Translations under genes and position numbers: made by a program | The notes under the pieces: model-generated | Told to the model about the DNA's origin: nothing | The model's database searches: none | Seen by the model: the letters and a program-made list of their open reading frames with translations, nothing else | Source: a virus | Lineage: Duplodnaviria > Heunggongvirae > Uroviricota > Caudoviricetes | DNA: 41,959 nt | Virus record (IMG/VR): IMGVR_UViG_2690316153_000014 | Span: 1 to 41,959 of that record | Direction: 5' to 3' (one strand) | In this document: positions 1 to 38,612 of the stretch, piece after piece | How positions within the stretch are numbered: the stretch's first letter is position 1 | How the letters are laid out: the number at the start of each line of letters is the position of its first letter

Positions 1-307
1 TATTTACGCAACGCAGGTCGATGGCTGCGGATTGCGGATATTCTTCTTTGTCGATCCAGTTTTTGTTAATGGATAAATCCATCAATTTGTGGACATTTTC
101 GTCGTCCCAGGTCTGGCAGAAAGTGGCCAGGTTCTGACGAGCGTTGCCATCAAGATATAATTCGTCATTGATAATCTGGAATGCGACATCGTCGCGCATT
201 TCGTGCAGCGGAAAACGTTTTGATTCTGCGATAGTGGAAATAGACTTCGCACCAAAACGTGAATCGAGTAGTTCCGACCTTAAATCCGTTACTTGCTTCT
301 TATCCAT
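1..307 (-). CDS. gadB: glutamate decarboxylase GadB, N-terminal part only (gene continues beyond the window start)
   Basis: Reverse-strand translation from the ATG at 305-307 reads [63 protein letters not shown]..., which matches the GadB N-terminus from memory (GadA would start MDQKLLTDF). AAGGAG Shine-Dalgarno on the reverse strand at 314-319. Absent from the ORF track because it is cut by the window edge. Confidence 0.85.
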
Positions 308-668: not shown

Positions 669-3464
669 TTATTTTGGCAATAATACTCCGGTATAAGTAT
701 TTACCGGATAAGAAAGATATTGTTTAACGGCAGTGTTAACATTCTCTACCGTCATTTGTTTCAACAATTGCTCCTGCTCAGTCCATGCTGCAGGATCGTC
801 ATATTGAATAAGACTATTTACAATAGTGTTCGCTAATTGTTGAACGCTACGCTGTTGGATATCGAGGCTGCGCTGAACGTTTTGCTGGTATTCATTCAGT
901 TCTTGCTCACTGATCCCTTTAGCCAGACGCTTAACCATCACTTCATTCGCTAACGTTAACAGTTCATCATGTCGTTCTGGTTGACAAGTAAAAGCCAGCA
1001 AATGACTGATATCTTTGGCCTGAGGATCAACCGAGAGGCGAGAAGAAACGCTGTATGCTCCAGATGCCTGTTCACGAATATTAACACGTAGATCTTTTGC
1101 CAGTGCGACGTTAAAAGCATCGAGCGCCATACGCGTCGCCAGATTAACAGGTGTCCGGGAATCATAACGCTTCCACTGTGAAACCTGTGCCACAGGTTCA
1201 TTTTGTTCTTTTACAGTAACCGATGCGTTGTCCGTCGTGCGAGTTAATGGTTTACCTGCGGCTAATGGCGAATCAGAGTGTTTGATTGATCCTAAGTAAC
1301 GCGTAATTAACGCCACGAGTTTGTCTTCTGAGACATTACCGACAATGACAAACGTGATATCCGCTGGAGATGAAAACAACTGGCGATCGGCAGCCAGCGC
1401 ATCTGCGGCAGTAAACTGTACAATCTGATTTTCTTGCAGTAATTTCGTGCGGTCATCAGCATAGCGCGTCTCAAACATCTGCTGGGCGAATTTCTCCGCT
1501 GGACGCTGGTCGAGCGTTTTCAACGCCTGAATTTGAGCATTTTGTAGCGATGCCCAAATATTGTCGTTAATCGTGCTGTGGGTGATTCGCTGGTTAATCA
1601 ACTGAAAACCAGGTTCAGGGTTATTAGTCCGCGCGCTAACGGAGAGCAACGTATTCATGCCACTGACTTTACTGCTCATGGTTACCGAATTTTCCGCACT
1701 CCAGCGTTTCAGGCTGGAAGAGGAGAGCTCACCAACGCCGCTTCCGCTTACTGCTTTATTTGCCAGCGCGATAAGTGATTTTTGCTGCGCAGGGAAACTT
1801 AAATCGCCTTTATTCGATACGGCAGTAATTTGTAGCTTTTGCTCTTCACCCGCGGATTTTGCCAGAATAACCCTGGCACCATTGGAAAGTGTTAATGATG
1901 TCAGATTCTCAGCCAGCGTTTCTTTGCTGCTAATTTCCGCCTGTGGGTCAGCGTCTACTGTTAACGATAAATTTCTGCCTGGGAAGATGTAAGCCGCCAG
2001 CTTTTTGTTGGCGTACTCTTTTTCCAGCGCCAGGATAGCCGCAGGAGACAATGCTTTTTTGGCGGCAAGCTCATTGTTTACCATTTGCTCCCAAAATGCG
2101 TCCTGGTTCTTTCTTAACTGCTGCCATTTTTCCGCCAGACTTTGCACGGTAATTTGCTGCCACAGATGTTTCGAAAGTTGATATGTCTCTTCCGGCGACA
2201 AGAACGGCGTATTATTTAATGAGCTGGATGCCAGGCGACTGGTCAGCATACGTAAATCACGTTCAGCTTGCTGATCAACCGCATTTTTCAGCCAGGTGAG
2301 GCGGGTAGATTTGACATCATCGAGTTCTTCAGCAGAAAAACCATGCTGATCAATGGTTGCCAACTCTGCCATTAATGCATTCGCAGCATCCTGCATATTA
2401 TCGTCTCGTGCATTTACACGGAAAAACAGCGACTGATAATCGGGTGCAAATTTAACGCTGCGCGCAGTGCCGCCAGAAATAGTCTTCAACTCGCCCGACT
2501 GTATGCGTTCCTGCAGACGTTGATTGAACAGCTGAACTAACATGCTCCATTCAGCTTGTTCGATAAAGCTTTGCTCATCGTTCACTTGTACCATTGGCAG
2601 GCGATAATAGAGTGCGATGCCGTTCACCCGGTTTTCTTTATCATTAATGATATTAAAGCGCAGGTGGTTTTCGGCTTTTGTCGGCCAGACGCGATTTTCA
2701 GCTGCTTTGTTAGCCGGAAGCTTACTTAAATTATCCTTTATCAGCGCCAGCGCTTCTTTACTGTCGATATCGCCGACCACGATAAAGGTCATATTATTTG
2801 GTTGATACCAGCGTTGATAAAATTGGCGCAATTGTGCCGGTGTGACCGTGGCGACAGTATCCATCAGGCCGATAGGTTCACGGTCTAAATTACGGGTATT
2901 AGCCAGCAGGAAAGGGCGGCGCGCCTGAGAGGTGCGCCATTTCGCATCCTGATGGGCACGCCATTCCTCAGTAATTACGCCACGTTCAGCGTCTACTTCG
3001 AGTTTTTCAAAGGTTGCGGCATTACTCCATTCACTGAAGATTGCCATCACTTGTTGCAGATTTTGTTTCTGCGTAGTCGGCAAACTCACCTGATACACCG
3101 TTTCGTCATAGCTGGTATAGGCATTAACATCGCGACCAAAACGCAGGCCCATTGACTCAAATGTTTCGATGACTTTATTACCCGGCCATGTTTTTGTGCC
3201 GTTAAACATCATATGTTCTACAAAATGAGCTACGCCGCGCTCATTGTCTTCTTCCTGCAATGAACCGGTATGAATTTGCAGCCATAAATTTACCTGATCC
3301 TTTGGATGAGCATGCGGATAAATCATATATCGCAAGCCATTGCCCAGTTGCCCGGTAATTAACTTTTCATCCTGCGGTAAGGCGGCGGCAATCAGCCGCC
3401 CGGGGAGCAACAGAGTTGCCACTAACGTCAGTAAGAAACAGAGGTTTCTCATAATTATCTCCAT
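669..3464 (-). CDS. pqqL: periplasmic zinc metallopeptidase, M16 family (PqqL)
   Basis: 931-aa ORF with signal peptide and the inverted zinc-binding motif HFVEHMMF...E; length and synteny (gadB-pqqL-yddB-yddA) match E. coli PqqL. Confidence 0.9.
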   Translation of the reverse strand: MEIIMRNLCFLLTLVATLLLPGRLIAAALPQDEKLITGQLGNGLRYMIYPHAHPKDQVNLWLQIHTGSLQEEDNERGVAHFVEHMMFNGTKTWPGNKVIETFESMGLRFGRDVNAYTSYDETVYQVSLPTTQKQNLQQVMAIFSEWSNAATFEKLEVDAERGVITEEWRAHQDAKWRTSQARRPFLLANTRNLDREPIGLMDTVATVTPAQLRQFYQRWYQPNNMTFIVVGDIDSKEALALIKDNLSKLPANKAAENRVWPTKAENHLRFNIINDKENRVNGIALYYRLPMVQVNDEQSFIEQAEWSMLVQLFNQRLQERIQSGELKTISGGTARSVKFAPDYQSLFFRVNARDDNMQDAANALMAELATIDQHGFSAEELDDVKSTRLTWLKNAVDQQAERDLRMLTSRLASSSLNNTPFLSPEETYQLSKHLWQQITVQSLAEKWQQLRKNQDAFWEQMVNNELAAKKALSPAAILALEKEYANKKLAAYIFPGRNLSLTVDADPQAEISSKETLAENLTSLTLSNGARVILAKSAGEEQKLQITAVSNKGDLSFPAQQKSLIALANKAVSGSGVGELSSSSLKRWSAENSVTMSSKVSGMNTLLSVSARTNNPEPGFQLINQRITHSTINDNIWASLQNAQIQALKTLDQRPAEKFAQQMFETRYADDRTKLLQENQIVQFTAADALAADRQLFSSPADITFVIVGNVSEDKLVALITRYLGSIKHSDSPLAAGKPLTRTTDNASVTVKEQNEPVAQVSQWKRYDSRTPVNLATRMALDAFNVALAKDLRVNIREQASGAYSVSSRLSVDPQAKDISHLLAFTCQPERHDELLTLANEVMVKRLAKGISEQELNEYQQNVQRSLDIQQRSVQQLANTIVNSLIQYDDPAAWTEQEQLLKQMTVENVNTAVKQYLSYPVNTYTGVLLPK

Positions 3465-3508: not shown

Positions 3509-5881
3509 TTAAAATTTCATGCTGACATCAAGCCAGAAAGTACGGCCACTGGCGTAGGTCGCCACACCGGTATTCGTTGTATCAACAGCGGTTTTGCTAT
3601 CCAATACATTGAGAATATCGGCACTGATCGTCAGGTTTTGTTGTTTCAGAAATTGTGGCGTCCAGGACAAGCGGGTGTCCCAGGTCAGGCTGCTATCCAG
3701 TTTTTCGTCAACATACTGCTTGTAATCTGAATATTCGCTGATGTATTGCGCATTTGTCTTACCCAGGATAATGCGAGCTTTACGCGCTTCTTGCCAGGCC
3801 AGCGTATTCGCCCACACTAACCCGCTCGGTTGATGCGTGAAATCCATGTTTAAGGAGATCTTTAATGGGTTATTAAAATCTGCCACTGGAACGCTATCGT
3901 AAGAGACCAGATTACCGTTATAAACCACCTGGTTATCACCGGTATTGCTCTCCTCATAACCATTGTTTAACGACAAGTTGCCCTTGCTCTTGATATAGCT
4001 AAAGACAATTTGTGGGTTAATATCTACCTGGCGGATATGCAGGGGTTCGGCCAGTTCAAAACTGAGGCTGAACGAATGCGTTTTGGTTTTGCCATCGTTG
4101 TTATATTCAGTAATGGTGGTTTTAGTCGCGCTGTCGGTACGACTGCTTTTGCTTATTTGATCATGCGCTTCACGGTAAACATAGTTTGCACGCGCAATAA
4201 CGTTCTTACCGATTTTCTGCTGCAATCCCATTGCCAGTTCATCGTTATAAGGCGTTTTCAAATCCTGATAACGCGTCAGAGTTTTATTACCTGATACCGA
4301 TTCCGTCCAGCTATTGCGGATATCACGTAATCCCATATCAAGAATATTCCCGCCATAGTAACGGTTATAACCTGCTGTAATCATTGAGGTTTGATTAGCA
4401 AAAATATCCCATTCCGTCATAAAGCGCGGGGAGATATTGTGGTTTGACAGATAGTTGTCATAGTCATACCGCACGCCGGGCATTAATGACACATTACGCC
4501 AGCTAATGCGATCCGCCATATACAGCGTGTAGTTGTCAATTCCCAGGCTGCCTTTACCTTTATGGTAAATGGTATGGTTAGTTTTCTTTCCGGCAGCATT
4601 AATCACATAGGATTCAGACTGGTTATGGCGTTCAGTCCACGCATCGGAATAGATGTATTCCGCGCCGAAGTAGGGTTGATGCGAAACATTACCCACGGCG
4701 AATTTTTGTCAGTCCAGGCGTGTTTTGAAGGTGTAATTATCTACAGCCTGGGAAATGTGTCCTAATCCGCCACGGGTGCAACGCCCTGTAATATCACCAT
4801 ATGTACATGAAAGTTCGGTGTACCAGATGTCATGATCGTGACGGGTATAATCACTAATATGATCCCAACCAACGGTGGTACGTAGTTTGGCCCATGCGAG
4901 CTGCGTATCCATATCCCATGCCAGACCATAGGATTTATTACCCATTTCGCGATCAGACTGCGGGAAGGTGCTGGTATTATAATCACGGCTGGAGCCGGTA
5001 TATTTTAAGGTTAAATCGTGGGTAAAGCGGTCGCTGGCAAACCAGGTAAATTTGCTCAATGCGGTATCGATAACGTTTTTATACTGTGCCCGACCGGCGA
5101 CAATGCCGTCATTCGAAACATAATCCGCGCGGGTGATATCAGACTGGCGGCGCGATAAACCGGCGGTAACGCCAAAGTTATCAGCGAGTTCCTGATTAAA
5201 CGACAAGGTATAAAAGTTCTTTTTAAAATCTGGGGAGTAATAAGTACTTCCTGAAGAGCCTTGATTAAATGCGCTCTTGTTATTCTCATCGATATGCGAT
5301 GTTAACCAGTCCGAACGCGTAGTGCGATAACCCAGTTTCACGCTGCTATCATCAGCGTTGAAGCGTTTGATCTTTGCATCAATTACCCCGCCATTGAAGC
5401 GACCGAATTCAACCGGCACAAAACTGTCATAAAGCGTCACATTGTCCAGTAAGCTGACATCAAGATAATACCCCTGTGACATCCCGCTAATATTGGTTGC
5501 ACTACTGGCATCGGACTCATTCGCTGGGTTCAAGTTATTAGTGGCACTAATACCGTCAATCAAATAGGCATTCTGATAGGGCGACGCACCGTGAATAGAG
5601 ATTTTCTCCGGGCGAATATCTCCCTGGTTCAACGAGGTACTTTGCGTTGAATCCATGCGTACCGCAGGGTTGGTTCTCAGCAGATCGCTGATATTGCCAT
5701 TCCCGGTCGGTAAACGCTCGATGCTTTCACTGGTGTAATGCGTGTTGCCGTTTACGGGTACAGGGACAGGAGCATAGACCGTCATCTCTTCAAAAACATG
5801 CATGTACATGTTTTTGTCATCGACGGCCTGCGCCACATCAGCGCCACATAAAATGACGCCAGGAATAAGAACTCGCTTCAT
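3509..5881 (-). pseudogene. yddB: TonB-dependent outer-membrane receptor YddB interrupted by an in-frame TGA at 4709-4711 (track ORFs 4709..5881 and 3509..4696 are one frame)
   Basis: Both ORFs are in the same reading frame; 791 codons span the region, matching the 790-aa YddB. N-terminal part has a signal peptide and plug-domain features, C-terminal part ends in the terminal Phe typical of a beta-barrel. The only interruption is one opal codon (revcomp of tca at 4709-4711). Confidence 0.75.
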
Positions 5882-5918: not shown

Positions 5919-7604
5919 TTATAAAACCGCGCTAATGTCACAAATATCATCTGCCAGGTTCCAGACACCGGGTTGATGTGTAACCATAATGACGCCGCTT
6001 GTGGGTAGTTTTTCACGCACTAAACGCAGTAAGCGGATAGCCTCTTGTTCCTCAAGATGAGAGGTAGTTTCGTCAAGAAATATCCATTTCGGACGTCGTA
6101 AAATTAATCGTGCCAGGGCGATACGTTGTTTTTCGCCGCTGGAAAGAATATCTCCCCAGCGATCGTGGTCATGAATACGCGCAGCCAATTTCCCCAGACC
6201 AACCTGATGCAGTACTTCGCTCAACGATTTATCGTCTACGGGCAGGGGAAGTGCTTTACAAATAATCTCTTTCAGTAAGCCGCTTTTGATTAACGGTGTT
6301 TGTGACACATACCAACTGTCAGCAGGAGAAGAAATATCACCTTTAAACCACGGCCAGCAGTGGGATAATGTTTTAAGCAGTGTGGTTTTTCCCGCACCAG
6401 AGTAGCCTTTCAGTAATAGCCATTTGCCTGGCGAAACATGAAAGTTCAAGTTCTCTAATATGATCTTATTATCAGGCGTACGAATACTCGCATTAGCCAC
6501 TTGTACCGCATGTTGGCAATTTTTAGGCTTATTCGTAGGGCGCTGTTCAGTGAGTTGATGGAACTCATACAAGCGATCGATAACCGCAGCCAGCTCAGCA
6601 AGTTCGTCATATTTATAAATAAACCAGCTTAAATTGTTCGATACCAGCATAAATGCCTGGCGCGATTTCATCAGTCCGCCCAGATTGATCTGCCCGCAAA
6701 TAAACTGCGGCAATAACAGAAAGTAGGGAAGAACGCTAAGCGAGCGCGAATAAATATTCTGCCAGTAATCAAGCCACCGCTGACGATTCATTAAACGATG
6801 CCAGTTCTCTTTAATGGTATGAAAATTGTCGCTCAACTCCTGGCGTTGTAGAGACTCAGCATTGCTTAGCGCAATCAGTTCTGCCTGCTTATTATGCTGC
6901 ACAAGATTTGTTCGAAATGTCGCTTCGCTACGTTGTTTTTCCACATTAAGCGGACGAATACGTTTACCAACCTTATGGGTAAATAAAGTTCCACCGATCA
7001 CAATGAGCACAACGGTATAGACCATATACCCCTGGATATTCCATTCTGTTCCACCAACAGTGAATGAGAGCGTACCCGCGCTTTGCCAAAGAATAACGGT
7101 AAAGGTGATCAGCATGCTAAGTGACTGGATGAAGCCAAATGAAAGGCTGAGCGTTTTGCTGATCAGTAAGAGAATGTCTTCAGCGATACGTTGGTCAGGG
7201 TTATCTGTATTTTTATGCTCGCCGTAGATCTGCGTGAAGTAGTAGTTTTTATCTGCAAACCACCGATTAAGGTAGTAATCTGTTAACCATTCGCGCCAGC
7301 GAATAGTCAGTAGTTTAATTAACCATGTTTTGTTTACGGATATTAATACAAAGATCCCCAGCAGGGCAGGGAACCAAAGGACAAGCTGCCAAAGCTTATC
7401 GGTTTCTTTCTGGCTTAGCGCATTGAAAAAATCATTATTCCAGTCGTTTAACCAGACCTGAATTTTAACCACGCCAAGGATCATGGCGAGGATAATAATG
7501 ATTAACAACACTGAAGTTTTATTATTCTTACGCAGCCAAAAGGGCTTCAGCAGACAGAGATACTTTGCTATCAACATACAAAACGTAATGGGAATGGTTA
7601 TCAT
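5919..7604 (-). CDS. yddA: fused permease/ATP-binding ABC transporter YddA
   Basis: 561-aa ORF with N-terminal hydrophobic segments and C-terminal Walker A (GYSGAGKTT), ABC signature (LSSGEKQR) and Walker B (IFLDETTSHL). Confidence 0.9.
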   Translation of the reverse strand: MITIPITFCMLIAKYLCLLKPFWLRKNNKTSVLLIIIILAMILGVVKIQVWLNDWNNDFFNALSQKETDKLWQLVLWFPALLGIFVLISVNKTWLIKLLTIRWREWLTDYYLNRWFADKNYYFTQIYGEHKNTDNPDQRIAEDILLLISKTLSLSFGFIQSLSMLITFTVILWQSAGTLSFTVGGTEWNIQGYMVYTVVLIVIGGTLFTHKVGKRIRPLNVEKQRSEATFRTNLVQHNKQAELIALSNAESLQRQELSDNFHTIKENWHRLMNRQRWLDYWQNIYSRSLSVLPYFLLLPQFICGQINLGGLMKSRQAFMLVSNNLSWFIYKYDELAELAAVIDRLYEFHQLTEQRPTNKPKNCQHAVQVANASIRTPDNKIILENLNFHVSPGKWLLLKGYSGAGKTTLLKTLSHCWPWFKGDISSPADSWYVSQTPLIKSGLLKEIICKALPLPVDDKSLSEVLHQVGLGKLAARIHDHDRWGDILSSGEKQRIALARLILRRPKWIFLDETTSHLEEQEAIRLLRLVREKLPTSGVIMVTHQPGVWNLADDICDISAVL

Positions 7605-7894
7605 TAGCGAAAATTGATTGTGCCATCCAATGATTATCTATGGCAATGATTTACTGATGAAATTTATTTAAGTATCATTTAACAATATGAAATATAAAGG
7701 AATATTTCATTTTCAGTGGTTATGGTTATGCTATTGATAATCAAGGGTATTGCTAATGCCCTGACGCATACCACGTAAGCCAGGATTTTCGCAAGGGAAG
7801 ATGATGATGACGAAACACCCGACAGGAATTTATGTCGGGTGCCTTGTTAAGGTCATAAGAAGGAGGCTAAGAATGGAGTTAAAAGAGAGCGTTA

Positions 7895-19809: not shown

Positions 19810-20295
19810 TTACTGCATGGTTGCCTTAATACGCGGAGTTAATGCACCGTAATCATTGATCGTCTGAAAACTGATATCCCCGGTTGCAGCATGCGGGATA
19901 TCCACCGATACTTCACCTTTTGGCGGCACCATGGTGTTTGGGAGATTGCTATTTCCTGCTTTCATATTTGTTACGGTAATGAAGTAGGGCGTTGGATTAA
20001 TAAGAGTGAGTTTGCTACCGCTGCGACGAAACCGAAGCATTGCTGGCGCTTCTTCAGGTGCCATTGCCAGGTTCGTGGGGCGATAAAACATTTTTATGCG
20101 GCTAATAATTGCCAGCTGTAATGTATTCTCATTCTTCTGGTCTTTTTCCATAGCAGGAATAGCTTTAACATTCACCCAGAACAGGCTTTCACGGTCGCCT
20201 GGTAACTGATGATTAGTAGCGTTGATTATCCGCAGCGTATTCTCTTTTTTACCTTGCATGGAAAAAAGCGGTGGGGTAATGACAAACTGGGTGTC
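19810..20295 (-). pseudogene. periplasmic fimbrial chaperone (FimC family), 5'-truncated by IS3
   Basis: Frame is open from the IS3 boundary (reads [48 protein letters not shown]...). It matches only the C-terminal two thirds of FimC-type chaperones, with no start codon, signal peptide or N-terminal domain. Confidence 0.75.
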
Positions 20296-20351
20296 TGATC
20301 TTACCCAGCAATAGTGGACACGCGGCTAAGTGAGTAAACTCTCAGTCAGAG

Positions 20352-20660
20352 GTGACTCACATGACAAAAACAGTATCAACCAGTAAAAAACCCCGTAAAC
20401 AGCATTCGCCTGAATTTCGCAGTGAAGCCCTGAAGCTTGCTGAACGCATCGGTGTTACTGCCGCAGCCCGTGAACTCAGCCTGTATGAATCACAGCTCTA
20501 CAACTGGCGCAGTAAACAGCAAAATCAGCAGACGTCTTCTGAACGTGAACTGGAGATGTCTACCGAGATTGCACGTCTCAAACGCCAGCTGGCAGAACGG
20601 GATGAAGAGCTGGCTATCCTCCAAAAGGCCGCGACATACTTCGCGAAGCGCCTGAAATGA
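20352..20660 (+). CDS. insE: IS3 OrfA (InsE-type HTH transposase subunit)
   Basis: 99-aa [34 protein letters not shown]... with HTH and leucine-zipper-like C-terminus. Confidence 0.9.
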
Positions 20661-21523
20661 AGTATGTCTTTATTGAAAAACATCAGGCTGAGTTCAGCAT
20701 CAAAGCAATGTGCCGCGTGCTCCGGGTGGCCCGCAGCGGCTGGTATACGTGGTGTCAGCGGCGGACAAGGATAAGCACGCGTCAGCAGTTCCGCCAACAC
20801 TGCGACAGCGTTGTCCTCGCGGCTTTTACCCGGTCAAAACAGCGTTACGGTGCCCCACGCCTGACGGATGAACTGCGTGCTCAGGGTTACCCCTTTAACG
20901 TAAAAACCGTGGCGGCAAGCCTGCGCCGTCAGGGACTGAGGGCAAAGGCCTCCCGGAAGTTCAGCCCGGTCAGCTACCGCGCACACGGCCTGCCTGTGTC
21001 AGAAAATCTGTTGGAGCAGGATTTTTACGCCAGTGGCCCGAACCAGAAGTGGGCAGGAGACATCACGTACTTACGTACAGATGAAGGCTGGCTGTATCTG
21101 GCAGTGGTCATTGACCTGTGGTCACGTGCCGTTATTGGCTGGTCAATGTCGCCACGCATGACGGCGCAACTGGCCTGCGATGCCCTGCAGATGGCGCTGT
21201 GGCGGCGTAAGAGGCCCCGGAACGTTATCGTTCACACGGACCGTGGAGGCCAGTACTGTTCAGCAGATTATCAGGCGCAACTGAAGCGGCATAATCTGCG
21301 TGGAAGTATGAGCGCAAAAGGTTGCTGCTACGATAATGCCTGCGTGGAAAGCTTCTTTCATTCGCTGAAAGTGGAATGTATCCATGGAGAACACTTTATC
21401 AGCCGGGAAATAATGCGGGCAACGGTGTTTAATTATATCGAATGTGATTACAATCGGTGGCGGCGGCACAGTTGGTGTGGCGGCCTCAGTCCGGAACAAT
21501 TTGAAAACAAGAACCTCGCTTAG
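20657..21523 (+). CDS. insF: IS3 OrfB (InsF-type DDE transposase catalytic subunit); start overlaps the orfA stop (ATGA)
   Basis: 288-aa ORF with an RNase-H-fold DDE integrase core; the overlap with orfA fits the usual IS3 -1 frameshift fusion arrangement. Confidence 0.9.
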
Positions 21524-21674
21524 GCCTGTGTCCATATTACGTGGGTAGGATCACGCAGGGGTCGGCCCATTTGAGCTTCAGATAGGAACGTTTGAATTCC
21601 TTTCACAAAATACATCACATACTGAACGTGAACATTCCCACTTTGATCTTAAGGCCAAAAAGTATGCAGGACTA

Positions 21675-23393
21675 ATGATTTTTAGGGATAGCTTGAGAGT
21701 ATTACCTTATGGTCGAGTAGATAATGATTTCTTCCAGATAGAAGAAAGACGTTCATGGAATGCTGGGCGATATTATTGGTCTAATAGAAGGATTTTTGGT
21801 TATATTGGAATTACTCAATCCAGTAATAAAGAGCTGAAAGATAAGTCGGGGAGAGAGGGATTCATAAGAAACCAGGCTGCAAGAGAACTGAAAACTATTA
21901 TATCTAATTTGTTAACTGAACTTGCTGATAGATTTTTTGGTTCACGTTCTGATGACCGTAAAGAGCTTTTAGAACAAGTTAAGCGTGAAAAAGAGTTAAG
22001 AAAATCTGCTCAACAACAAGCTCGAAAATCAACACAAAAAAGTTTTTCAGAAGCTTTGAAGAATCAGACACCAGTTCTTGATGCTTCCTTGGAGGCTGTT
22101 AAAAGGCTGAAAACTAAGCTTGATAAAACTGATGGTTCGTTAGATTTAAACTATCTTAAAATTATAGACAGTGATCTTACAAACTTAGATGCGTTGCGCA
22201 GTGAAATTAAAACGCCTATCAAACCTCCAAAACTTGGAATGTATGAAGAGAAATATAGAGACTACAGAGATAAATTTAATGAGTTCTCTGCGTATATTCT
22301 ACAAATGAAGTTAGCAATTAATAAACTTGATTCTGAATTAAATAAACTTGAGCCTTCATTGTCAGCGAAAAATCACCTTGAAAAAAATCAAGGTATTATT
22401 AATTCTAAACTAACTAAGTTTAATAACACGATAGAGGAGAAGATACATTCTCTTTTAAAAAAATGGGCCGATGAAATAAAGGTTGATCGAAGTGATTATT
22501 ATGCTAAAACTATATCAGTTGTTGATTCAATAGATAATGATTCACAAATTGAAAATGTGTTTAATTTGCTCGATAGTTTATATGTTGAGTCAGTTGATAC
22601 CCTAACTTTCAAATATCAATCAATAATAAAAGGTCTCGATAGATTATTTGAAGGTATAAACTTAGATTCAGCATTCTCATTATCTGAAGAAGAACGCTCA
22701 TATTTTGAAGAAAAAGCTAAAAGTTTAAACGCGCTTGCACAGTTAGGTATTAGTGTTGAGATAATATCTCATGAACTTGAAGAAATGGATTCTATGGTAA
22801 CCAGAGGACTAAACTCTCTTCCTACTTCTGTAAAAGAACACCCTGGTTTTTCATTGGCGTTAAATGCTCACAGATCGCTTACTCAACAAATACGTTTCTT
22901 ATCACCTTTGAAAATATCAGGTTATCAATCCAGGCAGAGAATAACTGGAAAAAATATCATGGATTATGTCCTGAAGTTCTTTGGGGAGCGTTTCGAACGG
23001 CAACGAATAACTATTGAATTTAGTGAAGAGTTTAAGCAAATCGCAATAACAGATATACCATCAAGGATCTATCCTGTTTTTACTAATATTATCAACAATG
23101 CAATGTATTGGGTCAGTCTGTCAAATAATAGGCTCATAAAGATTGGTTTTGTGAATTCTTTGGTTATCATAGCAAATTCTGGTCCGGCAATTGATACCGA
23201 TGATATCCCGCGACTATTTGAACTATTTTATAGCAAAAGAGCAAATGGACATGGGGTAGGTCTGTATCTATGTCGAGAAAACCTTGCTGTTGCACATCAT
23301 AAAATATGGTATTCAGAACCTGATGAAGGCGATAACTATTTAATAAAAGATGGCGCTAATTTTGTGATCCAGTTCAATGGAGTGGAGTTCTAA
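21675..23393 (+). CDS. cytoplasmic histidine-kinase-like protein (coiled-coil N-terminal region, H-box-like ISHELEEM, C-terminal HATPase_c/GHKL domain); possibly 5'-truncated by IS3
   Basis: C-terminus carries N box (VFTNIINNAMYWV), G1 (IIANSGPAIDTDD), F (LFELFYSKR) and G2 (GHGVGLYLC) motifs. No transmembrane segment. The frame stays open upstream of the ATG back into the IS3 right end (stop at 21546-21548). AT-rich codon usage. Confidence 0.6.
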   Translation: MIFRDSLRVLPYGRVDNDFFQIEERRSWNAGRYYWSNRRIFGYIGITQSSNKELKDKSGREGFIRNQAARELKTIISNLLTELADRFFGSRSDDRKELLEQVKREKELRKSAQQQARKSTQKSFSEALKNQTPVLDASLEAVKRLKTKLDKTDGSLDLNYLKIIDSDLTNLDALRSEIKTPIKPPKLGMYEEKYRDYRDKFNEFSAYILQMKLAINKLDSELNKLEPSLSAKNHLEKNQGIINSKLTKFNNTIEEKIHSLLKKWADEIKVDRSDYYAKTISVVDSIDNDSQIENVFNLLDSLYVESVDTLTFKYQSIIKGLDRLFEGINLDSAFSLSEEERSYFEEKAKSLNALAQLGISVEIISHELEEMDSMVTRGLNSLPTSVKEHPGFSLALNAHRSLTQQIRFLSPLKISGYQSRQRITGKNIMDYVLKFFGERFERQRITIEFSEEFKQIAITDIPSRIYPVFTNIINNAMYWVSLSNNRLIKIGFVNSLVIIANSGPAIDTDDIPRLFELFYSKRANGHGVGLYLCRENLAVAHHKIWYSEPDEGDNYLIKDGANFVIQFNGVEF

Positions 23394-23394
23394 T

Positions 23395-25143
23395 ATGACA
23401 GTGGCAAATTATAATTCTCTTGTCCAGAAAACTTTCTGCGAAAATGCAATTCGTTCCGTTGTCATGATTGATGACGATTTTCTGACGTATTCTGAATCAA
23501 TCAGGGCGTTGAATAACGAAGTTGATTTAGACTACAACAAAATTGACTCATCTAAACGAGCCGCTACTCTTGAGAGCTTTTTTCAATCTAAAAATATGAT
23601 TTGTGATGTTGACAATGGTTCTGTTAATTTCGATGTGGATCGGATTAGAAAATCAGATCTTATTATTGTAGATTATCATCTTGATAATAATGCACCTGAT
23701 AAAACACTTAAACTATTACAAGATTTGAAAGACTCCGATCATTTAAATATGATTGTAATATATACTAGAGAGAATTTAGAAACGGTTTGGATGCAGATAT
23801 CATCGACTCTCAAAGGTGCTCTGGATATCAACAGCTTGATCATTGACTACGATAATGAAGATGTCCAAAGTTATTGGGAAGACGTTGTATTACCGAACTT
23901 AAATGATAATGGTAATAAAGCTCTCACAAGAGATGAAACAATAGCCTATATTAAAGACAGTAAGCCTTGTAGAAGAATTAAAAGATTAATACATGATGAT
24001 GCTGTGTTGGAGGATCAAAAGGATAAAAACTTCATTGCAAAAATGATTGCAGAATATGCTGTGTCTAGAAATGCAATTATTTCTAGCAACACATCTGGCA
24101 ATGTCATTCGGGGTGATGAAAGCGGAGTAAAATGGATTCAATGTGGTAATATCTTTGTCTCCCTATTTCATAAGGTTCAAGATGATCATGAAAACGATGG
24201 AGATAGGATTTGGCAAACTCTCAATGATTCTCTCATTGAATGGAAACCATCTTATTATCAGTTAATAAAATCTGAAATTCAGAATGCAATCGAAGCTGAG
24301 GCTTTATCTTTTGTAAATCATTTGGCTAACGATCATTACGGTCAAGCTGCGTGGTTAAATGAGATATTAAAATCAGACTCGCCTGATATTAGATGTAGAA
24401 ATATTGACTTTGTATTTGGTAATTTATCAGAAGAGCTTTATCAAAGACTTAAAAATAATAATACGCTGGATGAATTTATCAAAAGTGTTTTTGATAGCTA
24501 TTCAAATGAATACGCTAACAGCGGAGTTGCTGCATTGCTCCAATATTGCTCTTCAAAAATGGATCTGCCATCAAATAATGATACTTATCACGAAATGTAT
24601 CATGCTTTAAATATGAATTTGTCTTCAAAGAATTTTGAAGATGGTCATATTTCTACTGGCACTATTTTCTTTGATACAGAGTCGAACAAATGGTATTTAT
24701 GTGTATCTGCGGCATGTGATTTGGTTCCTACTCAGGGTAACGACCCTCACCATGTAAGATTAAGTCCGCACAGGCTCATTAAAGTTCTGGAGCTTTTTAA
24801 CGCCAGTCAGAGTAAAGCATTGCCATTTGCTGAACATTCGAAATATATATATGTAATGCATAAAAATCAAAGAAAATATCTCTCTATTTTCGAAGGGGAT
24901 AAAACGCTTCCTGTTGTTGATTATATGGTGGTGTTGAATCATGGAACAACAGTTGATGGCGAAGAAAAAAATATTATTTCTGCCGTGTTTTTAAGTAATA
25001 TGGATGGCAACGTGCAAAATGTTCCTGTCCGACTCAAACTTAAATCTCAACTGAGAACTGGTTATGCAGAAAGATATCAGGCTATAGCGTCTCAGTATAG
25101 CTCAAGGATTGGTGTGGATTATGTATCAATGATGCTACCATAA
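23395..25143 (+). CDS. response-regulator-like protein: N-terminal receiver (REC) domain plus a roughly 440-aa C-terminal domain of unknown function
   Basis: REC hallmarks: acidic cluster VVMIDDDF, candidate phospho-acceptor Asp in LIIVDYHLD, conserved Thr in MIVIYTRE. GGAG Shine-Dalgarno 7 nt upstream; the ATG lies 2 nt after the kinase stop (an alternative in-frame ATG is at 23377). I recognise no DNA-binding or enzymatic motif in the C-terminal domain. Confidence 0.6.
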   Translation: MTVANYNSLVQKTFCENAIRSVVMIDDDFLTYSESIRALNNEVDLDYNKIDSSKRAATLESFFQSKNMICDVDNGSVNFDVDRIRKSDLIIVDYHLDNNAPDKTLKLLQDLKDSDHLNMIVIYTRENLETVWMQISSTLKGALDINSLIIDYDNEDVQSYWEDVVLPNLNDNGNKALTRDETIAYIKDSKPCRRIKRLIHDDAVLEDQKDKNFIAKMIAEYAVSRNAIISSNTSGNVIRGDESGVKWIQCGNIFVSLFHKVQDDHENDGDRIWQTLNDSLIEWKPSYYQLIKSEIQNAIEAEALSFVNHLANDHYGQAAWLNEILKSDSPDIRCRNIDFVFGNLSEELYQRLKNNNTLDEFIKSVFDSYSNEYANSGVAALLQYCSSKMDLPSNNDTYHEMYHALNMNLSSKNFEDGHISTGTIFFDTESNKWYLCVSAACDLVPTQGNDPHHVRLSPHRLIKVLELFNASQSKALPFAEHSKYIYVMHKNQRKYLSIFEGDKTLPVVDYMVVLNHGTTVDGEEKNIISAVFLSNMDGNVQNVPVRLKLKSQLRTGYAERYQAIASQYSSRIGVDYVSMMLP

Positions 25144-25670: not shown

Positions 25671-26900
25671 TTAGGCTACCAGAGCATTTGATCTTTGAGC
25701 TTGAACGTAATCACTCCACCATTGCATCAAACTCTGTCGCTCTATCAGATATTCTGCACGATTGTATGCTGCGATAATTTCATCTTTTTTCGAGTGGGCA
25801 AGCGCTGCCTCAAGAACTTCAGCTCTGAATTTACCAGACTCCTCTGCCGCTGTTCGTGCAATAGAACGCATACCGTGAGCTACAAGCTCGCCTCCGAACC
25901 CCATTCGGATGATAGCTGCGTTGGCTGTTTGTTCATGCATATGATTAAGAGGCGCTTTTATGCTGGGGAAAACCCATTCTCTATGCCCACTTATTGATTT
26001 CATTAATTCAAGGATGCGCAAAGCTTCTTTACTCAAAGGAACTTTGTGAAGCTTTTTCATTTTCATGAAATCAGCAGGAATGTTCCAAATGCTGTTGGTT
26101 GTATCAATATCAGACCACCTTGCGCGAACGGCTTCACCCGGACGAACCCATGTCAACAATTGCCATTCAATTAGCATACGTGTTTCCAACCGGATTGACG
26201 CATTCGTCAAAGATTCCATAAACCTTGGCAATTCGCTTGGGGGAAGGGCAGGCATATTTTGCTTTTTTGGTTTACTGAATCTTTGACCAAGGTTGTCAGC
26301 CGGGTTGAACTCAATAAGTTCTTCAGTAGCTGCCCACCGGAAGATTTCATTCAGACGTGAAATGATACGGCGTAGAGTTTCCAATACGCCTCGTTGCTCA
26401 ATAGGATCAAGGTGTTGTTTTAAGAGCTTAGGTCGGATCTCATTGATAGGGACATTACCCAGACCGGGAAAGACATTTCTCTCTAAGCTGCGCCAGATGT
26501 CTGCTGCATGGTCTTGTGAGATACCTGATGTCTTTACCTTCTCATCTAACCATTTCCGCGCTACGGCTTGGAGAGTGTGCTCAGTAGCACTCTTTAATGC
26601 CTTCGCCTTATCGTTGTTATGGATTTGGGGATCAACACCATTTGCCAGAAAGGAGAGATATTCATCACGTAAGGCTCTGGCTCTTGCAAGGGTAAGGTGA
26701 GGATATGTCCCAAGGCTCATTTTGGTTCTTTTCTTGCTCACTGGTACTGTATACCTGAAATACCAATTTTTCTTGCCTCCTTTCGCCAAAGGAGCGATTC
26801 GTAGAATCAGACCATCACCGTCAAACAAGTTGATTTCTTTATCGGCTGGCTTGGTGCTTTTGATTTCAGTGTCAGTGAGCTTCTTAGCGATTTTTGCCAT
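25671..26900 (-). CDS. P4-type (CP4-57 IntA-like) tyrosine integrase
   Basis: N-terminal arm-binding region MAKIAKKLTDTEIKSTKPADKEINLFDGDGL...WYFRY and C-terminal catalytic region with HxxR and terminal Tyr. Start set at the Met with a GAGG Shine-Dalgarno (track ORF begins 14 codons earlier at 26942). Confidence 0.8.
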   Translation of the reverse strand: MAKIAKKLTDTEIKSTKPADKEINLFDGDGLILRIAPLAKGGKKNWYFRYTVPVSKKRTKMSLGTYPHLTLARARALRDEYLSFLANGVDPQIHNNDKAKALKSATEHTLQAVARKWLDEKVKTSGISQDHAADIWRSLERNVFPGLGNVPINEIRPKLLKQHLDPIEQRGVLETLRRIISRLNEIFRWAATEELIEFNPADNLGQRFSKPKKQNMPALPPSELPRFMESLTNASIRLETRMLIEWQLLTWVRPGEAVRARWSDIDTTNSIWNIPADFMKMKKLHKVPLSKEALRILELMKSISGHREWVFPSIKAPLNHMHEQTANAAIIRMGFGGELVAHGMRSIARTAAEESGKFRAEVLEAALAHSKKDEIIAAYNRAEYLIERQSLMQWWSDYVQAQRSNALVA

Positions 26901-27065
26901 TTTGGGACCCTCGGTTTTTGGACCCTTCTTAGTGGGTCCCATTCAGGGTGCCATAACTCGTAGTTCTCAGCAATTCTCACTGGACGACAATAGACGTAAA
27001 AAAGCCCGCAGAGCTTGTGCTGTGTGGGCTTAGTAGACTTCATTGAACTTCAAACAACTAAAAAG

Positions 27066-27394: not shown

Positions 27395-27435
27395 TACCTT
27401 CACTGCACAGCCAGTGAAGTGTTGAGGAGACTAGC

Positions 27436-27777
27436 ATGAGAACAGTAGCGAGAAGATCGATACAGACGATTGAGCGTCGGACTCAACTCGTCAGTTCTTT
27501 TGTTGACTCAAACACAGCAAACGAGTTCTTCGTGAGAAGACTGAGTGATCGTGTCTCCCCGGCACGTCAGCTGTTTATTGTGACATTGAACAATGAGGTT
27601 CGTGACGGTGACGTGATCCCGTTCGCTGAGATCGCCATGAACAAAGAAAAATTGCGCTATGTTGTGAAGCCAGCAGATCAGTATCCTCAGTATGTAAGCA
27701 GTAATCTGCTGAAGAAAATTGAAGCGGCAATTGCTCTATACATGCAGAAGAACTACAGGGAAATTAACTACCATTAA
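27436..27777 (+). CDS. hypothetical protein (113 aa), first gene of a two-gene cassette
   Basis: ORF preceded by GAGGAG Shine-Dalgarno (27424-27429); 11-bp gap to the next gene; I recognise no motif. Confidence 0.5.
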   Translation: MRTVARRSIQTIERRTQLVSSFVDSNTANEFFVRRLSDRVSPARQLFIVTLNNEVRDGDVIPFAEIAMNKEKLRYVVKPADQYPQYVSSNLLKKIEAAIALYMQKNYREINYH

Positions 27778-27788
27778 AAGGTTGCTGA

Positions 27789-28556
27789 ATGGCTCCTGCG
27801 TTAATACCTTCATATAACAAGGACTTGAACATTACGCCATTTGGCGAAAAACGTCTTATTGAGTCATTCTATTTTTTCACTGCCGAGGCTGGCTTACTGA
27901 GGGCTGATGAGTACATTGTCAGTTCTGGTGAGTTTCAGTACTACTTGGATGTGTATCAACTGGGATGTTCCACCGACGACTTTTTTTTAGACTATGGCAG
28001 TGACCTTCTTGATTCGAAGGTTCCAATGCAGGATCTGGTCAATACCCTCTTGGGTCTTGATATGGTAGACGATAACAAAACGATAAGAATAGGTCGTATA
28101 CAGTTCAACGACTTTAATTTTATCGAAGAGAACGGTCAGATGATGACCGGAAAGCAAGTGAAAAGCGCTGTTATCGCACAGGATTTCCAATCAGCAGGTT
28201 TGGCGCGTGAGATCTATAAAATGCTTGCGCGAAAGCATGAGTTTCTCATCTGCGATAACATTCAAAGTATTGCCGGTGGTGCTCTTTGGGCTAGTAGCAT
28301 CATTCGAATTGCCGAGGTACGGATCTACAATTCACGCACGAAGAAATTTATGGACATACTTGGTCCAGGTGCGCGTGGCGTTTCAGGTACTTTGCCATGG
28401 AGTGCGAATGATCTGTCTGTAGATGAGATTGTTCGCTGGGGTCGTGCGTATGATGATGAAAACTGTTGTCGTCACATTGTACATGTTATCTGTAAGGACC
28501 GACTCATTGACGATCAATTTCATGATTATGTTTCGATAGGTGGCGCGACAGAATAA
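27789..28556 (+). CDS. hypothetical protein (255 aa), second gene of the cassette
   Basis: Coding-like composition, tightly linked to the upstream ORF, followed by a terminator; no recognised domain. Confidence 0.5.
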   Translation: MAPALIPSYNKDLNITPFGEKRLIESFYFFTAEAGLLRADEYIVSSGEFQYYLDVYQLGCSTDDFFLDYGSDLLDSKVPMQDLVNTLLGLDMVDDNKTIRIGRIQFNDFNFIEENGQMMTGKQVKSAVIAQDFQSAGLAREIYKMLARKHEFLICDNIQSIAGGALWASSIIRIAEVRIYNSRTKKFMDILGPGARGVSGTLPWSANDLSVDEIVRWGRAYDDENCCRHIVHVICKDRLIDDQFHDYVSIGGATE

Positions 28557-28561
28557 CCATC

Positions 28562-28590
28562 AAAAAGACCCGGCATTTGCCGGGTTTTTT
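28562..28590. terminator. bidirectional intrinsic terminator between the cassette and the prophage integrase
   Basis: A-run, stem ACCCGGC/GCCGGGT (28568-28574 with 28579-28585), loop ATTT, T-run; works on both strands. Confidence 0.65.
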
Positions 28591-28597
28591 CTTCAAA

Positions 28598-29776
28598 TCA
28601 CTTCTTCATTCCAGATTCCATTGCGGTTTTCCCGTCGTATTCAGCCAGGTATTTACCGTAATTGCGGAACAGCATTTCCGGCCCCTTATGCCCCATCTGC
28701 CCGGCAAGCCAGAAAAGGTTTACACCCTGGCTAATGTGTCTGGTGGCGAATGTGTGGCGCGTCTGGTACGGGTTACGGTAGCGCACACCAGCTTTTTTCA
28801 GGGTCGGCACCCATGCTTTTTTACGGATAGCGTCGGCGTTCGTCCAGGGATCTCCCGTTTTCGGATCGCTGAATATGAACTCACTTTTCATAAAGGTGTA
28901 TTGCTTCTGCGCCTGCAGGGCCGCCAGCGCCTCACTGTTCAGCTCCACCTTACGGGTACCGGCTTTTGTCTTGGTGCCTTTAAGTACCCCTACGACACTG
29001 GCCGCCTGTATGTGCGCTGTATTACCTATAAAGTCGATATCGGTCCAACGTAATGCGCATAGCTCAGAGCTGCGTAGCCCTGTATTGAAGGCGAAGCGGA
29101 ACAGATTCTGCCATTCCTGATACTTGCAGTGCTGATATATGGCACTGGTTTCCGCAGGCGCAAACGGATCAACTTCGTAATCGTCGGCGTTCGGTTTACT
29201 GTCGACCACGTGATACCGGCTGGCGCTGACAAGAGTTACCGGGTTAATAGTCAACAGGCCATCAGTTACAGCCTCATCAATGGCGCTGCGCAGAAATGAC
29301 AGGTTATTCCTGATTGTTTTCAGCTTAGTTTTTCGGCTGGCTATCCAATTTTTTAGTACCGCAGGCGTCAATTCTGTTACATGTAGTTTATGTAGTTCTG
29401 ATAGTGCTGATAGACATTTTTCGTAACCGCCAATGGTTGACGGCGACAGATTGCGGTTCATGCAAATTTTCAGGTATTCATCAAGATAGGACTTAATATT
29501 TTTGGTTTTCTTTACTACACCGAATAACTCCAGTTTTTTGGAACTGGGGAAATATTTCGCATATTCAAACGTTCCGCTGGCGATCTGATTTTGTATCTCC
29601 CCTAGCAGGCGCTCAGCATATTTAATACCACGTGTATTTGCCTCAAGCCGAGACAGGGGCTCCCTGCAAAGAACCCCTTTATATGTGAAAGTGATAACTA
29701 GTGTTGAAGCAGTTTTATGCTTACGAATAGTTACTCCTCTTGGCAGAGATAATAATCCTTGTTCTTTCTTGCCCAT
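28598..29776 (-). CDS. lambdoid prophage tyrosine integrase
   Basis: 392-aa ORF with catalytic-domain residues (R in LRSSELCALRW, HTFATRH, terminal Tyr region); an excisionase-like ORF overlaps its start, as in lambda int-xis. Confidence 0.8.
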   Translation of the reverse strand: MGKKEQGLLSLPRGVTIRKHKTASTLVITFTYKGVLCREPLSRLEANTRGIKYAERLLGEIQNQIASGTFEYAKYFPSSKKLELFGVVKKTKNIKSYLDEYLKICMNRNLSPSTIGGYEKCLSALSELHKLHVTELTPAVLKNWIASRKTKLKTIRNNLSFLRSAIDEAVTDGLLTINPVTLVSASRYHVVDSKPNADDYEVDPFAPAETSAIYQHCKYQEWQNLFRFAFNTGLRSSELCALRWTDIDFIGNTAHIQAASVVGVLKGTKTKAGTRKVELNSEALAALQAQKQYTFMKSEFIFSDPKTGDPWTNADAIRKKAWVPTLKKAGVRYRNPYQTRHTFATRHISQGVNLFWLAGQMGHKGPEMLFRNYGKYLAEYDGKTAMESGMKK

Positions 29777-29940
29777 TTTGAAACCTCTATTAAGTCGACC
29801 CAGCGTTCTTTAACTCCGTCGACTTTTAATACATGAACCCCTTCTTTCCATATTCCTCTTTGTATCCGTTTGTTAACGGCATCAACCGTTTCTCCCGCGT
29901 CGCGGCAGTAGGTTGATATAGGCACGCAATCCAGCCCCAT
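29731..29940 (-). CDS. putative excisionase (Xis-like)
   Basis: 69-aa ORF overlapping the integrase start by 46 nt; small basic winged-helix-like composition; called from position only. Confidence 0.45.
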   Translation of the reverse strand: MGLDCVPISTYCRDAGETVDAVNKRIQRGIWKEGVHVLKVDGVKERWVDLIEVSKWARKNKDYYLCQEE

Positions 29941-30098
29941 ACATCACCTCACATAACACTCAGCCCACGGCAGTGGCACCACACGTCAAACATTCGCTTC
30001 ACAACTTCACGACAGTAGAAGCCGTCAACATCTCGCGTCAGGTCATAGCGATTGCCGTAACGCTGGTGGACCCATTGTTCAAATGCTTTATTCATTCT

Positions 30099-30377
30099 TT
30101 ACTTCCTTTTTATGGCTCGTAATTTTTTCAGGTGCTTTTCCTGCTCAGTGTCCGCGAGAATTTTGCGGTACTCCTGGTGGTCAATATGTTCGAACAGGCA
30201 GTTTAACTCACCAATGCGTACCCGCCCGGATCGTCCGTCCATCCGTCGAAAGAACACTGAGTGCTCAGTGATGCGAGTAATCACCACGGGGTATCCGGCT
30301 CTGTCCGTGTATATCTGACCGCGTTGAATCAAAGCGAACATGTGGTTATCCCCATCGACAAATTGAGAACACAACAA
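30099..30377 (-). CDS. hypothetical prophage early protein
   Basis: Minus-strand ORF in the early-left gene string; no recognised motif; start uncertain. Confidence 0.35.
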   Translation of the reverse strand: MLCSQFVDGDNHMFALIQRGQIYTDRAGYPVVITRITEHSVFFRRMDGRSGRVRIGELNCLFEHIDHQEYRKILADTEQEKHLKKLRAIKRK

Positions 30378-30464
30378 ACGCTACTGCGAATACCACCCCC
30401 AGAGTTACGATTGCATCAGGCCAGCTCATTGATTCACCTCCTGCGGCGTCCTGGTATTCGATTT

Positions 30465-31033
30465 TCATTCCGGATGCTCCTGAGCCACATTGAAATCGCC
30501 ATGATCACGACAAGGCATCACAACAAATTCAGGATTGCCATACATTGAGTTGATGATGGAATCAAACTGAATTCTGACCGCTTGCCCGTCACCGGAGGAA
30601 CGTAACTGGACGGGAATAAATTTACGCTCACGACCAAACATCTTCTCTGGATAACTCAGGTAACCCGCCTGGATCACCGGGTGTGTACAGAGGTCAAATT
30701 TTTTCGGAATGATGCGTTCCAAATCCGGAAAACAACCGTCCACCAATTTAATGCCGGTAATGGACAGCCGGCGCTGAAACTGGTCGCGATGAACAGGATC
30801 GGCTCTTTACTAAAAATCAGCTCTGTCGTTTCGGCTTTGGCCGGGACGCCACCTTCGAACTGGACAATGATGTTTTTCTTCGTCCGGATGCCGTGAGTCA
30901 TGCGCAGTGCTACGAAACCATTGGTTGCCTCAATATGTTTTGGCGTGATGTGAAGACCGTTCAGGTAATAACGAACGTCGTTTTTAGCAGCGCACACCAG
31001 AGCGGCGCGAATAAGTTTTGACTGGATGATCAT
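30465..31033 (-). pseudogene. beta-sliding-clamp (DnaN)-like gene covering clamp domains II-III, split by a frameshift (track ORFs 30674..31033 and 30465..30746)
   Basis: Upstream ORF contains DVRYYLNG and ATNG (DnaN has HQDVRYYLNG and ATDGHRLAV). Downstream ORF, in another frame and open upstream to 30806, contains KLVDGCFPDLERIIPK and EFVVMPCRD (DnaN has KLVDGRFPDYRRVLPK and C-terminal AYVVMPMRL). The two frames overlap by about 70 nt. Confidence 0.5.
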
Positions 31034-31779
31034 GCTTTATCCTCCCATCCGATTACCTGAAAAAGCCCCATCTTCGGGTGATACCAGCGTGTGCCGCGTG
31101 GTTCAGCCTCTGACATCATTTGGTGGAACGCCGCCATAAATGTCTCAAGCTCGACGACAGCCCTGCGAGACAACAGACCGTCCGGAGTCATAAATTCGTG
31201 CGTGTCGGTAGGGATGTGGTAGGCGTTGACCAGATTCCGACACTTGGCGTCACTCATTCCGCTTTTGGCTACCACCTGGCGGTAACCGACATATCCGGTG
31301 CGCATTGTGCCGCGTTTGATGTTCTCCACAGCTTTGGTGACCGTTTCGATCTTCTCTTCAACATGACTCAGGCGCTTCTGCTGGCGAACGGCATCGGCGG
31401 CCATTGCAGCGATCATCTCCATTTCCGTCAGCGGCGCGTGAGTTCGGAAATAGCTGTTAACCAGTTCGCGCTGAACCTGCCATGCAAGAGCATCGTTAAA
31501 AGGCTTCGTCAACATCAGGTAACCAGACTCGAAAAGAATGATCCCTTTGGCAGTTCGCGCGGCAAAGGCATCAGAAAGTGACTCCGTACGTATTACGTCC
31601 GCAGTCATTTCAAGAAAATCCACCCCTTCGATAAAGTGAGAACGGTTGCGGTTAAACGCAGCACGGGCGGTACCTTCCGGGCGCTGGTGGACGTCATCAA
31701 TTATTGCAAATGTCACAACACGCTGACCGCGATATTCGATTACCGGAAACTGTTTGTTGTTGATGGTTACAATATTCAT
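31030..31779 (-). CDS. phage antirepressor-like protein (ORF6N/AntA-type N-terminal domain)
   Basis: ORF starting MNIVTINNKQFPVIEYRGQRVVTFAIIDDVHQRPEGTARAAFNRNRSHFIEGVDF... with GGAG Shine-Dalgarno; domain call from motif resemblance only. Confidence 0.4.
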   Translation of the reverse strand: MNIVTINNKQFPVIEYRGQRVVTFAIIDDVHQRPEGTARAAFNRNRSHFIEGVDFLEMTADVIRTESLSDAFAARTAKGIILFESGYLMLTKPFNDALAWQVQRELVNSYFRTHAPLTEMEMIAAMAADAVRQQKRLSHVEEKIETVTKAVENIKRGTMRTGYVGYRQVVAKSGMSDAKCRNLVNAYHIPTDTHEFMTPDGLLSRRAVVELETFMAAFHQMMSEAEPRGTRWYHPKMGLFQVIGWEDKA

Positions 31780-31822
31780 TTTTATCTCCAGACAGCCCGG
31801 CGTGTAATACCGGGCATATGTA

Positions 31823-32835: not shown

Positions 32836-32895
32836 GGTCCTCCTGATGTATTCGGCTTGCCTTATTTAATTGCGTCATGGTTAATTTCGTTTACG

Positions 32896-34049: not shown

Positions 34050-34233
34050 TTGTTATTTCCCGTATGCTTTCCTGAGAAACAGTATTGCAACTGACCAGTA
34101 TCCTGCATTAGCCATTAATAATGCGGTTTTATAAGCACTTCTGTTTTTCATGCATCACCACCATTTTCAGGTTGTGGAAATTCCCGACCAGAGACCGTTA
34201 TGTTTTTATGGGTGATTGTTTATTGAGTTTTCT

Positions 34234-38611: not shown

Positions 38612-38612
38612 G

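Follow-up and report, generated by a model that had tools for sequence, protein, structure and literature searches.

The yddA-yddB-pqqL operon of the window

The window, by which we mean the whole stretch of 41,959 bp analysed here, carries on its minus strand the three genes of the yddA-yddB-pqqL operon of Escherichia coli. The first gene of the operon, yddA (5919..7604), encodes an ABC transporter of the SbmA/BacA type; the gene is intact (561 aa) and bears the lineage change S303C. The last gene, pqqL (669..3452), encodes a periplasmic M16 protease (PMC6793856) and is also intact, at 927 aa and with the lineage changes I335F and R429H. Between these two genes and on the same strand, in the operon arrangement of a gene of the YddB/FusA type, lies the yddB frame (3509..5881), which equals an intact allele (WP_000832496.1) at every base except 4709 and is interrupted by a premature stop codon. 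A putative Fur box, GGGAATGGTTATCATTAG, was found on the plus strand at 7590..7607, where it overlaps the start codon of yddA; this site matches the published motif (PMC3855560) with no mismatches, indicating that the control region of the operon is intact. The three genes are known to form one transcript, which is released from repression in a fur mutant and rises more than 30-fold in urine, and both yddB and pqqL contribute to the fitness of uropathogenic E. coli during systemic infection of mice (PMC3855560). The preliminary description of this DNA had named the same three genes as an uptake system but listed them in the order pqqL-yddB-yddA; the genes were correctly named whereas the order is the reverse of transcription, which proceeds from yddA through yddB to pqqL (PMC3855560).

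Direct reading of the minus strand between positions 3400 and 6000 showed that codon 391 of yddB (4711..4709) is a premature opal stop, TGA, in the context AAA ACA CGC CTG GAC TGA CAA AAA TTC GCC GTG GGT; the base immediately after the stop is C (UGA-C). When 3509..5881 was translated in one frame, we obtained 791 codons, of which the last is the terminal TAA; the 790 positions before it contain one stop, at position 391, and equal the length of intact YddB (790 aa; WP_000832496.1). The list of ORFs for the window contains two entries at this locus, 4709..5881 (minus strand, 390 aa, ATG start) and 3509..4696 (minus strand, 395 aa, GTG start). That these ORFs share one reading frame and together span the expected length of YddB, as had been claimed from the letters, agrees with the single-frame translation and with the length of the intact protein. 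The accompanying count of 790 sense codons plus a TGA was, in contrast, one too high, as there are 789 sense codons plus the TGA, divided into a piece of 390 codons and a further 399 in the same frame.

The 5' part of the gene (4712..5881, minus strand, 390 codons) encodes the signal peptide, the Plug domain and approximately the first eight strands of the barrel, while the 395-aa ORF (3509..4696) starts with a GTG at codon 396 and covers barrel strands 9-22. A look-up by exact sequence showed that NCBI already has both encoded proteins, each with two accessions, namely CTW57334.1 and CTX72719.1 for the 390-aa protein and CTW57350.1 and CTX72704.1 for the 395-aa protein. Of the contigs that carry them, the longest measures 41,959 bp, and the window therefore represents an entire draft contig.

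Identity of the ancestral codon

Comparison with intact alleles indicated which codon had preceded the stop. The allele of E. coli O103:H2 12009 (a single 790-aa CDS, WP_000832496.1) is one base apart from the yddB of the window, at gene position 1173, which corresponds to window position 4709, and there are no indels between the two alleles across 2,373 bases. At this position the intact allele has TGG (Trp391) and the window TGA, a G-to-A transition on the coding strand that produces W391*. The intact allele of KSC1031 likewise differs from that of the window only at base 4709 (TGG). Codon 391 is TGG in O103:H2 12009, RM10042, KSC1031 and the sister isolates described below, and there is no compensating change in the yddB of the window. 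Chance does not account for this pattern, in which one defined base differs within a highly conserved gene that is otherwise identical.

The proposal that the lesion is a nonsense substitution and not an indel is thus upheld, the sole difference from O103:H2 12009 over 2,373 bases being an A for a G, and the alignment to intact yddB that had been suggested as a check returned TGG as the sense codon in both the nearest intact alleles and the sister isolates. The possibility that reference genomes have a natural stop at this site, with two separate genes at the yddB locus, was ruled out, because all references that we examined have one CDS of 790 aa at this locus in their RefSeq annotation. We also ruled out a Dcm (CCWGG) deamination hotspot as the origin of the transition, as the neighbouring CCTGG excludes the mutated G. 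Among 31 homologues, the column for residue 391 is hydrophobic or aromatic (W, F, L, I, M, V or A) and is not invariant.

Authenticity, rarity and age of the stop codon

We have high confidence, on the basis of sequence comparisons, that the TGA in yddB represents a genuine, very recent and clone-specific nonsense mutation that has turned the YddB gene into a pseudogene. The opposing explanation is that the isolate truly carries TGG and that the A is a miscall introduced during sequencing or assembly, an explanation that would be compatible with the window being a draft contig, judged at the level of the assembly, and with the TGA allele being missing from complete genomes, JGI metagenome contigs and GTDB representatives. 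However, the same base is found, within a frame that is 100% identical over 2,373 bases, in GCA_001285005.1 (CYDK01000058.1, a contig of 20,406 bp) and in the assembly that Logan made independently from run ERR178186, reported for two samples; this reproducibility is one of assemblies, and the two NCBI assemblies may share a project and perhaps even an isolate or stock. The contig CYDK01000058.1 breaks inside the IS3 element of the window and hence belongs to a different assembly, with other contig boundaries. The remainder of the contig also argues against error, as comparison with the finished genome of KSC1031 detected 7 SNPs and no indels in 20.3 kb (20,296 bases), and a substitution in a non-repetitive and non-homopolymer context is atypical of an Illumina consensus error. 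We consider a miscall to be extremely improbable, and the caveat of the preliminary description that the TGA might be a sequencing error is unlikely to apply.

The allele is rare. A megablast search with the 2,373-base frame detected yddB in 4,642 of 5,426 complete RefSeq E. coli genomes, and the best 35 of these 4,642 matches all have a score of 4,377 bits. A 71-mer centred on the stop produced 4,627 matches in the complete RefSeq E. coli genomes, each with at least one mismatch, and a 55-mer centred on the stop, for which every 28-base megablast seed is forced to include the mutant base, produced no matches to the TGA allele in the 5,426 genomes. A 40-mer containing the TGA was absent from JGI metagenome contigs and from GTDB species representative genomes, and a search of the literature for the run, assembly and protein accessions of the TGA allele found nothing.

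An approximate order of events was provided by the other changes in the operon. In comparison to KSC1031 and O103:H2 12009, the yddA-yddB-pqqL operon of the window has four changes, namely I335F and R429H in PqqL, S303C in YddA and W391* in YddB. In their exact form both missense proteins of the window are rare, PqqL being found on 4 contigs (in a cluster of 19,456 members) and YddA on 3 (in a cluster of 9,009). Sister assemblies with this rare PqqL allele (GCA_025274305.1/SRR18428517 and GCA_047714685.1/SRR31899002) have an intact yddB of 790 aa, and over 6.3-9.4 kb these sisters differ from the window only at 4709 (G, giving TGG), plus base 279 in one pair. As the sisters share the missense changes but keep TGG, the nonsense mutation is younger than the missense changes of the lineage and is confined to one clone. 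Whether related strains share the stop had been put forward as a further check; the closest relatives carry TGG, and the mutation is both very recent and limited to a single E. coli clone. We ruled out that the three missense changes in pqqL and yddA stem from relaxed selection following the stop, because these changes also occur in sisters with an intact yddB. Besides the stop, all three SNPs of the operon change an amino acid and none is synonymous, numbers that are too few to claim relaxed or positive selection.

A real mutation may alternatively have arisen during laboratory storage or passage and not in a natural host. The allele has been seen only in assemblies that are perhaps from one project or stock (the CTW and CTX protein series and ERR178186), the nearest independent isolates are wild type and yddB is dispensable in LB (PMC6793856), all of which would fit a laboratory event. 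In contrast, the existence of two protein accession series and of contigs of 41,959 bp and 20,406 bp suggests that two samples were sequenced separately. We view a laboratory origin as unlikely while conceding it a small chance.

Predicted effects on the YddB receptor and its operon

YddB is a TonB-dependent barrel of 22 strands that carries a plug at its N-terminus and has a large pocket on its extracellular side; it is a structural analogue of the ferredoxin importer FusA (PMC6793856). Intact YddB matched chain A of PDB entry 6OFR (E = 0, 1740 bits, approximately 99% identity over residues 30-790) and also FusA (4ZGV; E = 5e-80). The only Pfam domain found in YddB was the Plug domain (PF07715) at residues 48-163, with E = 2e-7 and above the gathering score. 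An AlphaFold2 model of the intact protein, derived with 31 homologues, had a mean pLDDT of 85.3 and a pTM of 0.86. In this model, strand 375-391 terminates at residue 391; counted from the plug, it is the eighth of the long barrel strands, and a short turn separates it from strand 399-418.

The window has no uninterrupted ORF for all 22 strands and the C-terminal aromatic end (...SMKF), the rest being coded downstream of the TGA. Translation would be expected to stop after residue 390 and to yield a product consisting of the signal peptide, the TonB box and plug, and about 8 of the 22 strands (four hairpins), such that strands 9-22 (14 strands) and the C-terminal ...SMKF would be absent. A C-terminal strand with a terminal aromatic residue is required for BAM-dependent assembly of outer-membrane proteins. 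As this end of the barrel is missing, the truncated YddB would be unable to close the barrel and would probably be degraded in the periplasm. The protease-associated import by YddA, YddB and PqqL would then lack its entry step at the outer membrane. The preliminary description had envisaged truncation after the N-terminal half of the receptor; the truncation is supported but the term 'half' is not apt, as the approximately 8 of 22 barrel strands that remain are not a usable half.

The 395-aa ORF is preceded by no Shine-Dalgarno sequence in the adjacent 20 nt (TGGACTGACAAAAATTCGCC), and has no signal peptide and no match in Pfam. On these grounds a restart at its GTG was ruled out as the source of a functional product, and the ORF is very probably a by-product of the ORF caller that is not expressed as a protein.

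The stop may also have effects beyond yddB, because pqqL is located downstream and is thereby exposed to possible polarity. The 1.2 kb of untranslated yddB mRNA may lower the expression of pqqL through Rho-dependent polarity, and C-rich, G-poor stretches are present at approximately 570-620 nt after the yddB stop (24-25 C versus 12-13 G in 78 nt).

When set beside the YddB of E. coli (6OFR; PMC6793856), the window has the same gene, locus, yddA-yddB-pqqL operon and Fur box, and differs in that its copy has TGA for Trp391. The comparison with the FusA/FusC system for ferredoxin uptake in Pectobacterium (4ZGV) differs in that the window combines a broken receptor gene with an intact protease gene.

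Readthrough of the UGA codon

Readthrough of UGA in E. coli reflects competition between Trp-tRNA(Trp) and RF2, and readthrough of stop codons occurs at 10^-3 to 10^-2 (PMC10570021). As the ancestral residue is Trp, each readthrough event at the UGA of yddB regenerates wild-type YddB; approximately 0.1-1% of ribosomes would read this codon with Trp-tRNA(Trp), which would be too little for normal expression. UGA-C is reportedly the weakest stop signal of E. coli, according to work by Poole, Brown and Tate in 1995 that PMC9841425 cites, and residual YddB could exceed this generic figure. We found no evidence of a stimulatory structure, since the fold of an 81-nt stretch that includes the stop and the bases following it is no better than those of shuffled sequences (z = -1.0), and no tRNA or suppressor gene was found within the window. 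Selenocysteine insertion and programmed readthrough were ruled out due to the lack of a significant SECIS-like fold, the lack of conservation of the UGA and the lack of a tRNA or suppressor gene in the window. Thus, the earlier caveat that the TGA might be read through applies to basal readthrough but not to a programmed event.

These properties raise the question of whether the stop is itself functional, in that readthrough of UGA-C by Trp-tRNA(Trp) would keep a reduced but useful amount of wild-type YddB, acting as a 'dimmer' and not as a null. The ancestral Trp means that readthrough yields the exact wild-type protein, and the next base is C, said to be the weakest context. Such a function would also draw on a basal rate of 10^-3 to 10^-2 set by Trp-tRNA(Trp) and RF2 (PMC10570021) and on an operon that is induced more than 30-fold in urine (PMC3855560). 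The absence of a stimulatory element in the 81 nt (z = -1.0) and of a tRNA gene in the window speaks against it, however, as does the TGG of the sister isolates, with nothing pointing to a selected recoding site. Moreover, a 100- to 1000-fold drop, combined with possible mRNA polarity, would be a functional null for most transporters. We consider a functional leaky stop very improbable and favour a simple loss of the receptor.

Decay of yddB in E. coli

Other assemblies, found via the 395-aa fragment, have different lesions in the upstream part of yddB, including E356* (GAA to TAA) and 1-bp deletions of T930 and of C1132; a 5-bp deletion at 1122-1126, an internal deletion and one contig with several 1-bp deletions were detected in the same look-up. 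These observations indicate that yddB decays sporadically in E. coli, in a sample of lesions that was ascertained by the search key and that says nothing on rate or selection. There are 302 single-base routes to a stop codon in yddB, including 63 transitions, and the gene has 16 Trp codons.

Codon 391 was also found as TAG in a gut-metagenome scaffold from ENA (ERZ28650874, 3222..3224), in an allele with 14 other differences from the window. This TAG is a separate event and a second natural nonsense allele of W391; a lesion at the same codon is expected because the search key was the exact 390-aa product.

Keying the look-up on an exact protein also generated false carriers. Two contigs (L005 and L007) were rejected as further carriers of the 390-aa product, as they merely end after codon 390, and a third (L006; Logan ERR15738806, 1442..1469) was rejected because the Illumina adapter AGATCGGAAGAGC is fused after ...GACTG. 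In this third contig the stop is made by the untrimmed adapter AGATCGGAAGAGCGTCGTGTAGGGAA following ...CTGGACTG, and a public assembly thus mimics a yddB mutation.

The simplest explanation for the loss of yddB is that a niche-specific gene has decayed neutrally or nearly so. Deletion of yddB or pqqL causes no growth defect in LB, iron limitation included (PMC6793856), and the lack of such a phenotype for yddB fits with easy loss. Given the role in mouse fitness, the loss is not necessarily neutral in every niche (PMC3855560). This case resembles the pseudogenes of accessory outer-membrane receptors that nonsense or frameshift mutations have sporadically produced in E. coli and Shigella lineages, in that there is a single-base lesion, in one clone, with intact neighbours; the only distinction is that UGA occupies a former Trp codon, such that basal readthrough regenerates the wild-type sequence.

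Alternatively, the loss may have been selected, if a phage or protein bacteriocin exploits YddB as a receptor and the nonsense allele was favoured. TonB-dependent transporters commonly serve as receptors for phages and colicins. FusA provides a precedent, being exploited by ferredoxin-type pectocins, and several unrelated yddB lesions occur in public E. coli assemblies, including the independent TAG at the same codon; the large extracellular pocket of YddB would also suit the binding of a small protein (PMC6793856). However, the other lesions were found by searching with identical fragment proteins and their positions are an effect of ascertainment, hundreds of thousands of E. coli assemblies have been sampled for a gene with 302 single-base stop routes, and the TGA allele is confined to one clone with no sign of spread. 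No phage or bacteriocin is known to depend on YddB, and we regard selected loss as quite unlikely. A combination of both ideas, in which there is repeated selection for loss of yddB (due to an unknown phage or toxin using the receptor) and in which UGA-C acts as a leaky null that keeps a trace of receptor, is in our judgement distinctly improbable; the independent lesions are compatible with this combination, but neutral decay would predict them just as well in view of the way in which they were ascertained.

Our preferred reading is that W391* is ordinary gene decay in a structurally characterised receptor gene. For annotation, CTW57334.1 and CTW57350.1 represent one yddB pseudogene and the strain is to be scored as negative for the YddB receptor. 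For work on the uptake of iron or proteins or on fitness outside the intestine, the clone would be a natural yddB null with near-isogenic wild-type relatives in public data, and could help in finding the substrate of YddB and PqqL.

Other features of the window

The start of the window (1..307) lies inside gadB, which is nearly identical to gadA, and CYDK01000058.1 also ends in gadB, 19 bases past position 1. As both contigs end within this near-identical gene, the contig end is a repeat-induced assembly break and not a biological boundary.

A complete IS3 (1,258 bp, 20296..21553) cuts the periplasmic chaperone gene of the ydeQ/R/S-usher fimbrial operon, leaving a 3' remnant ORF of 149 aa (19810..20259) as compared to 236 aa in KSC1031. 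The 3-bp flanks of the element, GTC and CGC, do not form a target-site duplication, and the IS3 joins the chromosome to an unrelated island; this junction looks like an IS3-mediated rearrangement or deletion and not a simple insertion. Besides yddB, the contig has one more inactivated locus for a surface structure, that of the fimbrial chaperone.

On the island beyond the IS3, a two-gene module (21675..25143) adjoins a P4-type integrase (25671..26942). One gene of the module encodes a histidine-kinase-like protein of 572 aa, in which the domains HEF_HK and HATPase_c occur, and the other a protein of 588 aa with a Response_reg_2 domain (PF19192). Neither the HEF_HK nor the Response_reg_2 protein matched the PADLOC defence models; the pair may be a mobile 'conflict system' of kinase and receiver.

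Finally, the region from approximately 27 to 42 kb (27400..41959) is the early region of a lambdoid prophage, with an integrase, a LexA-family repressor, a DEAD/DEAH helicase, a toprim primase and a Q antiterminator. This region is 99.9% identical to a prophage of the aEPEC strain E110019, where the annotation marks several of the genes as frameshifted or interrupted by a stop.
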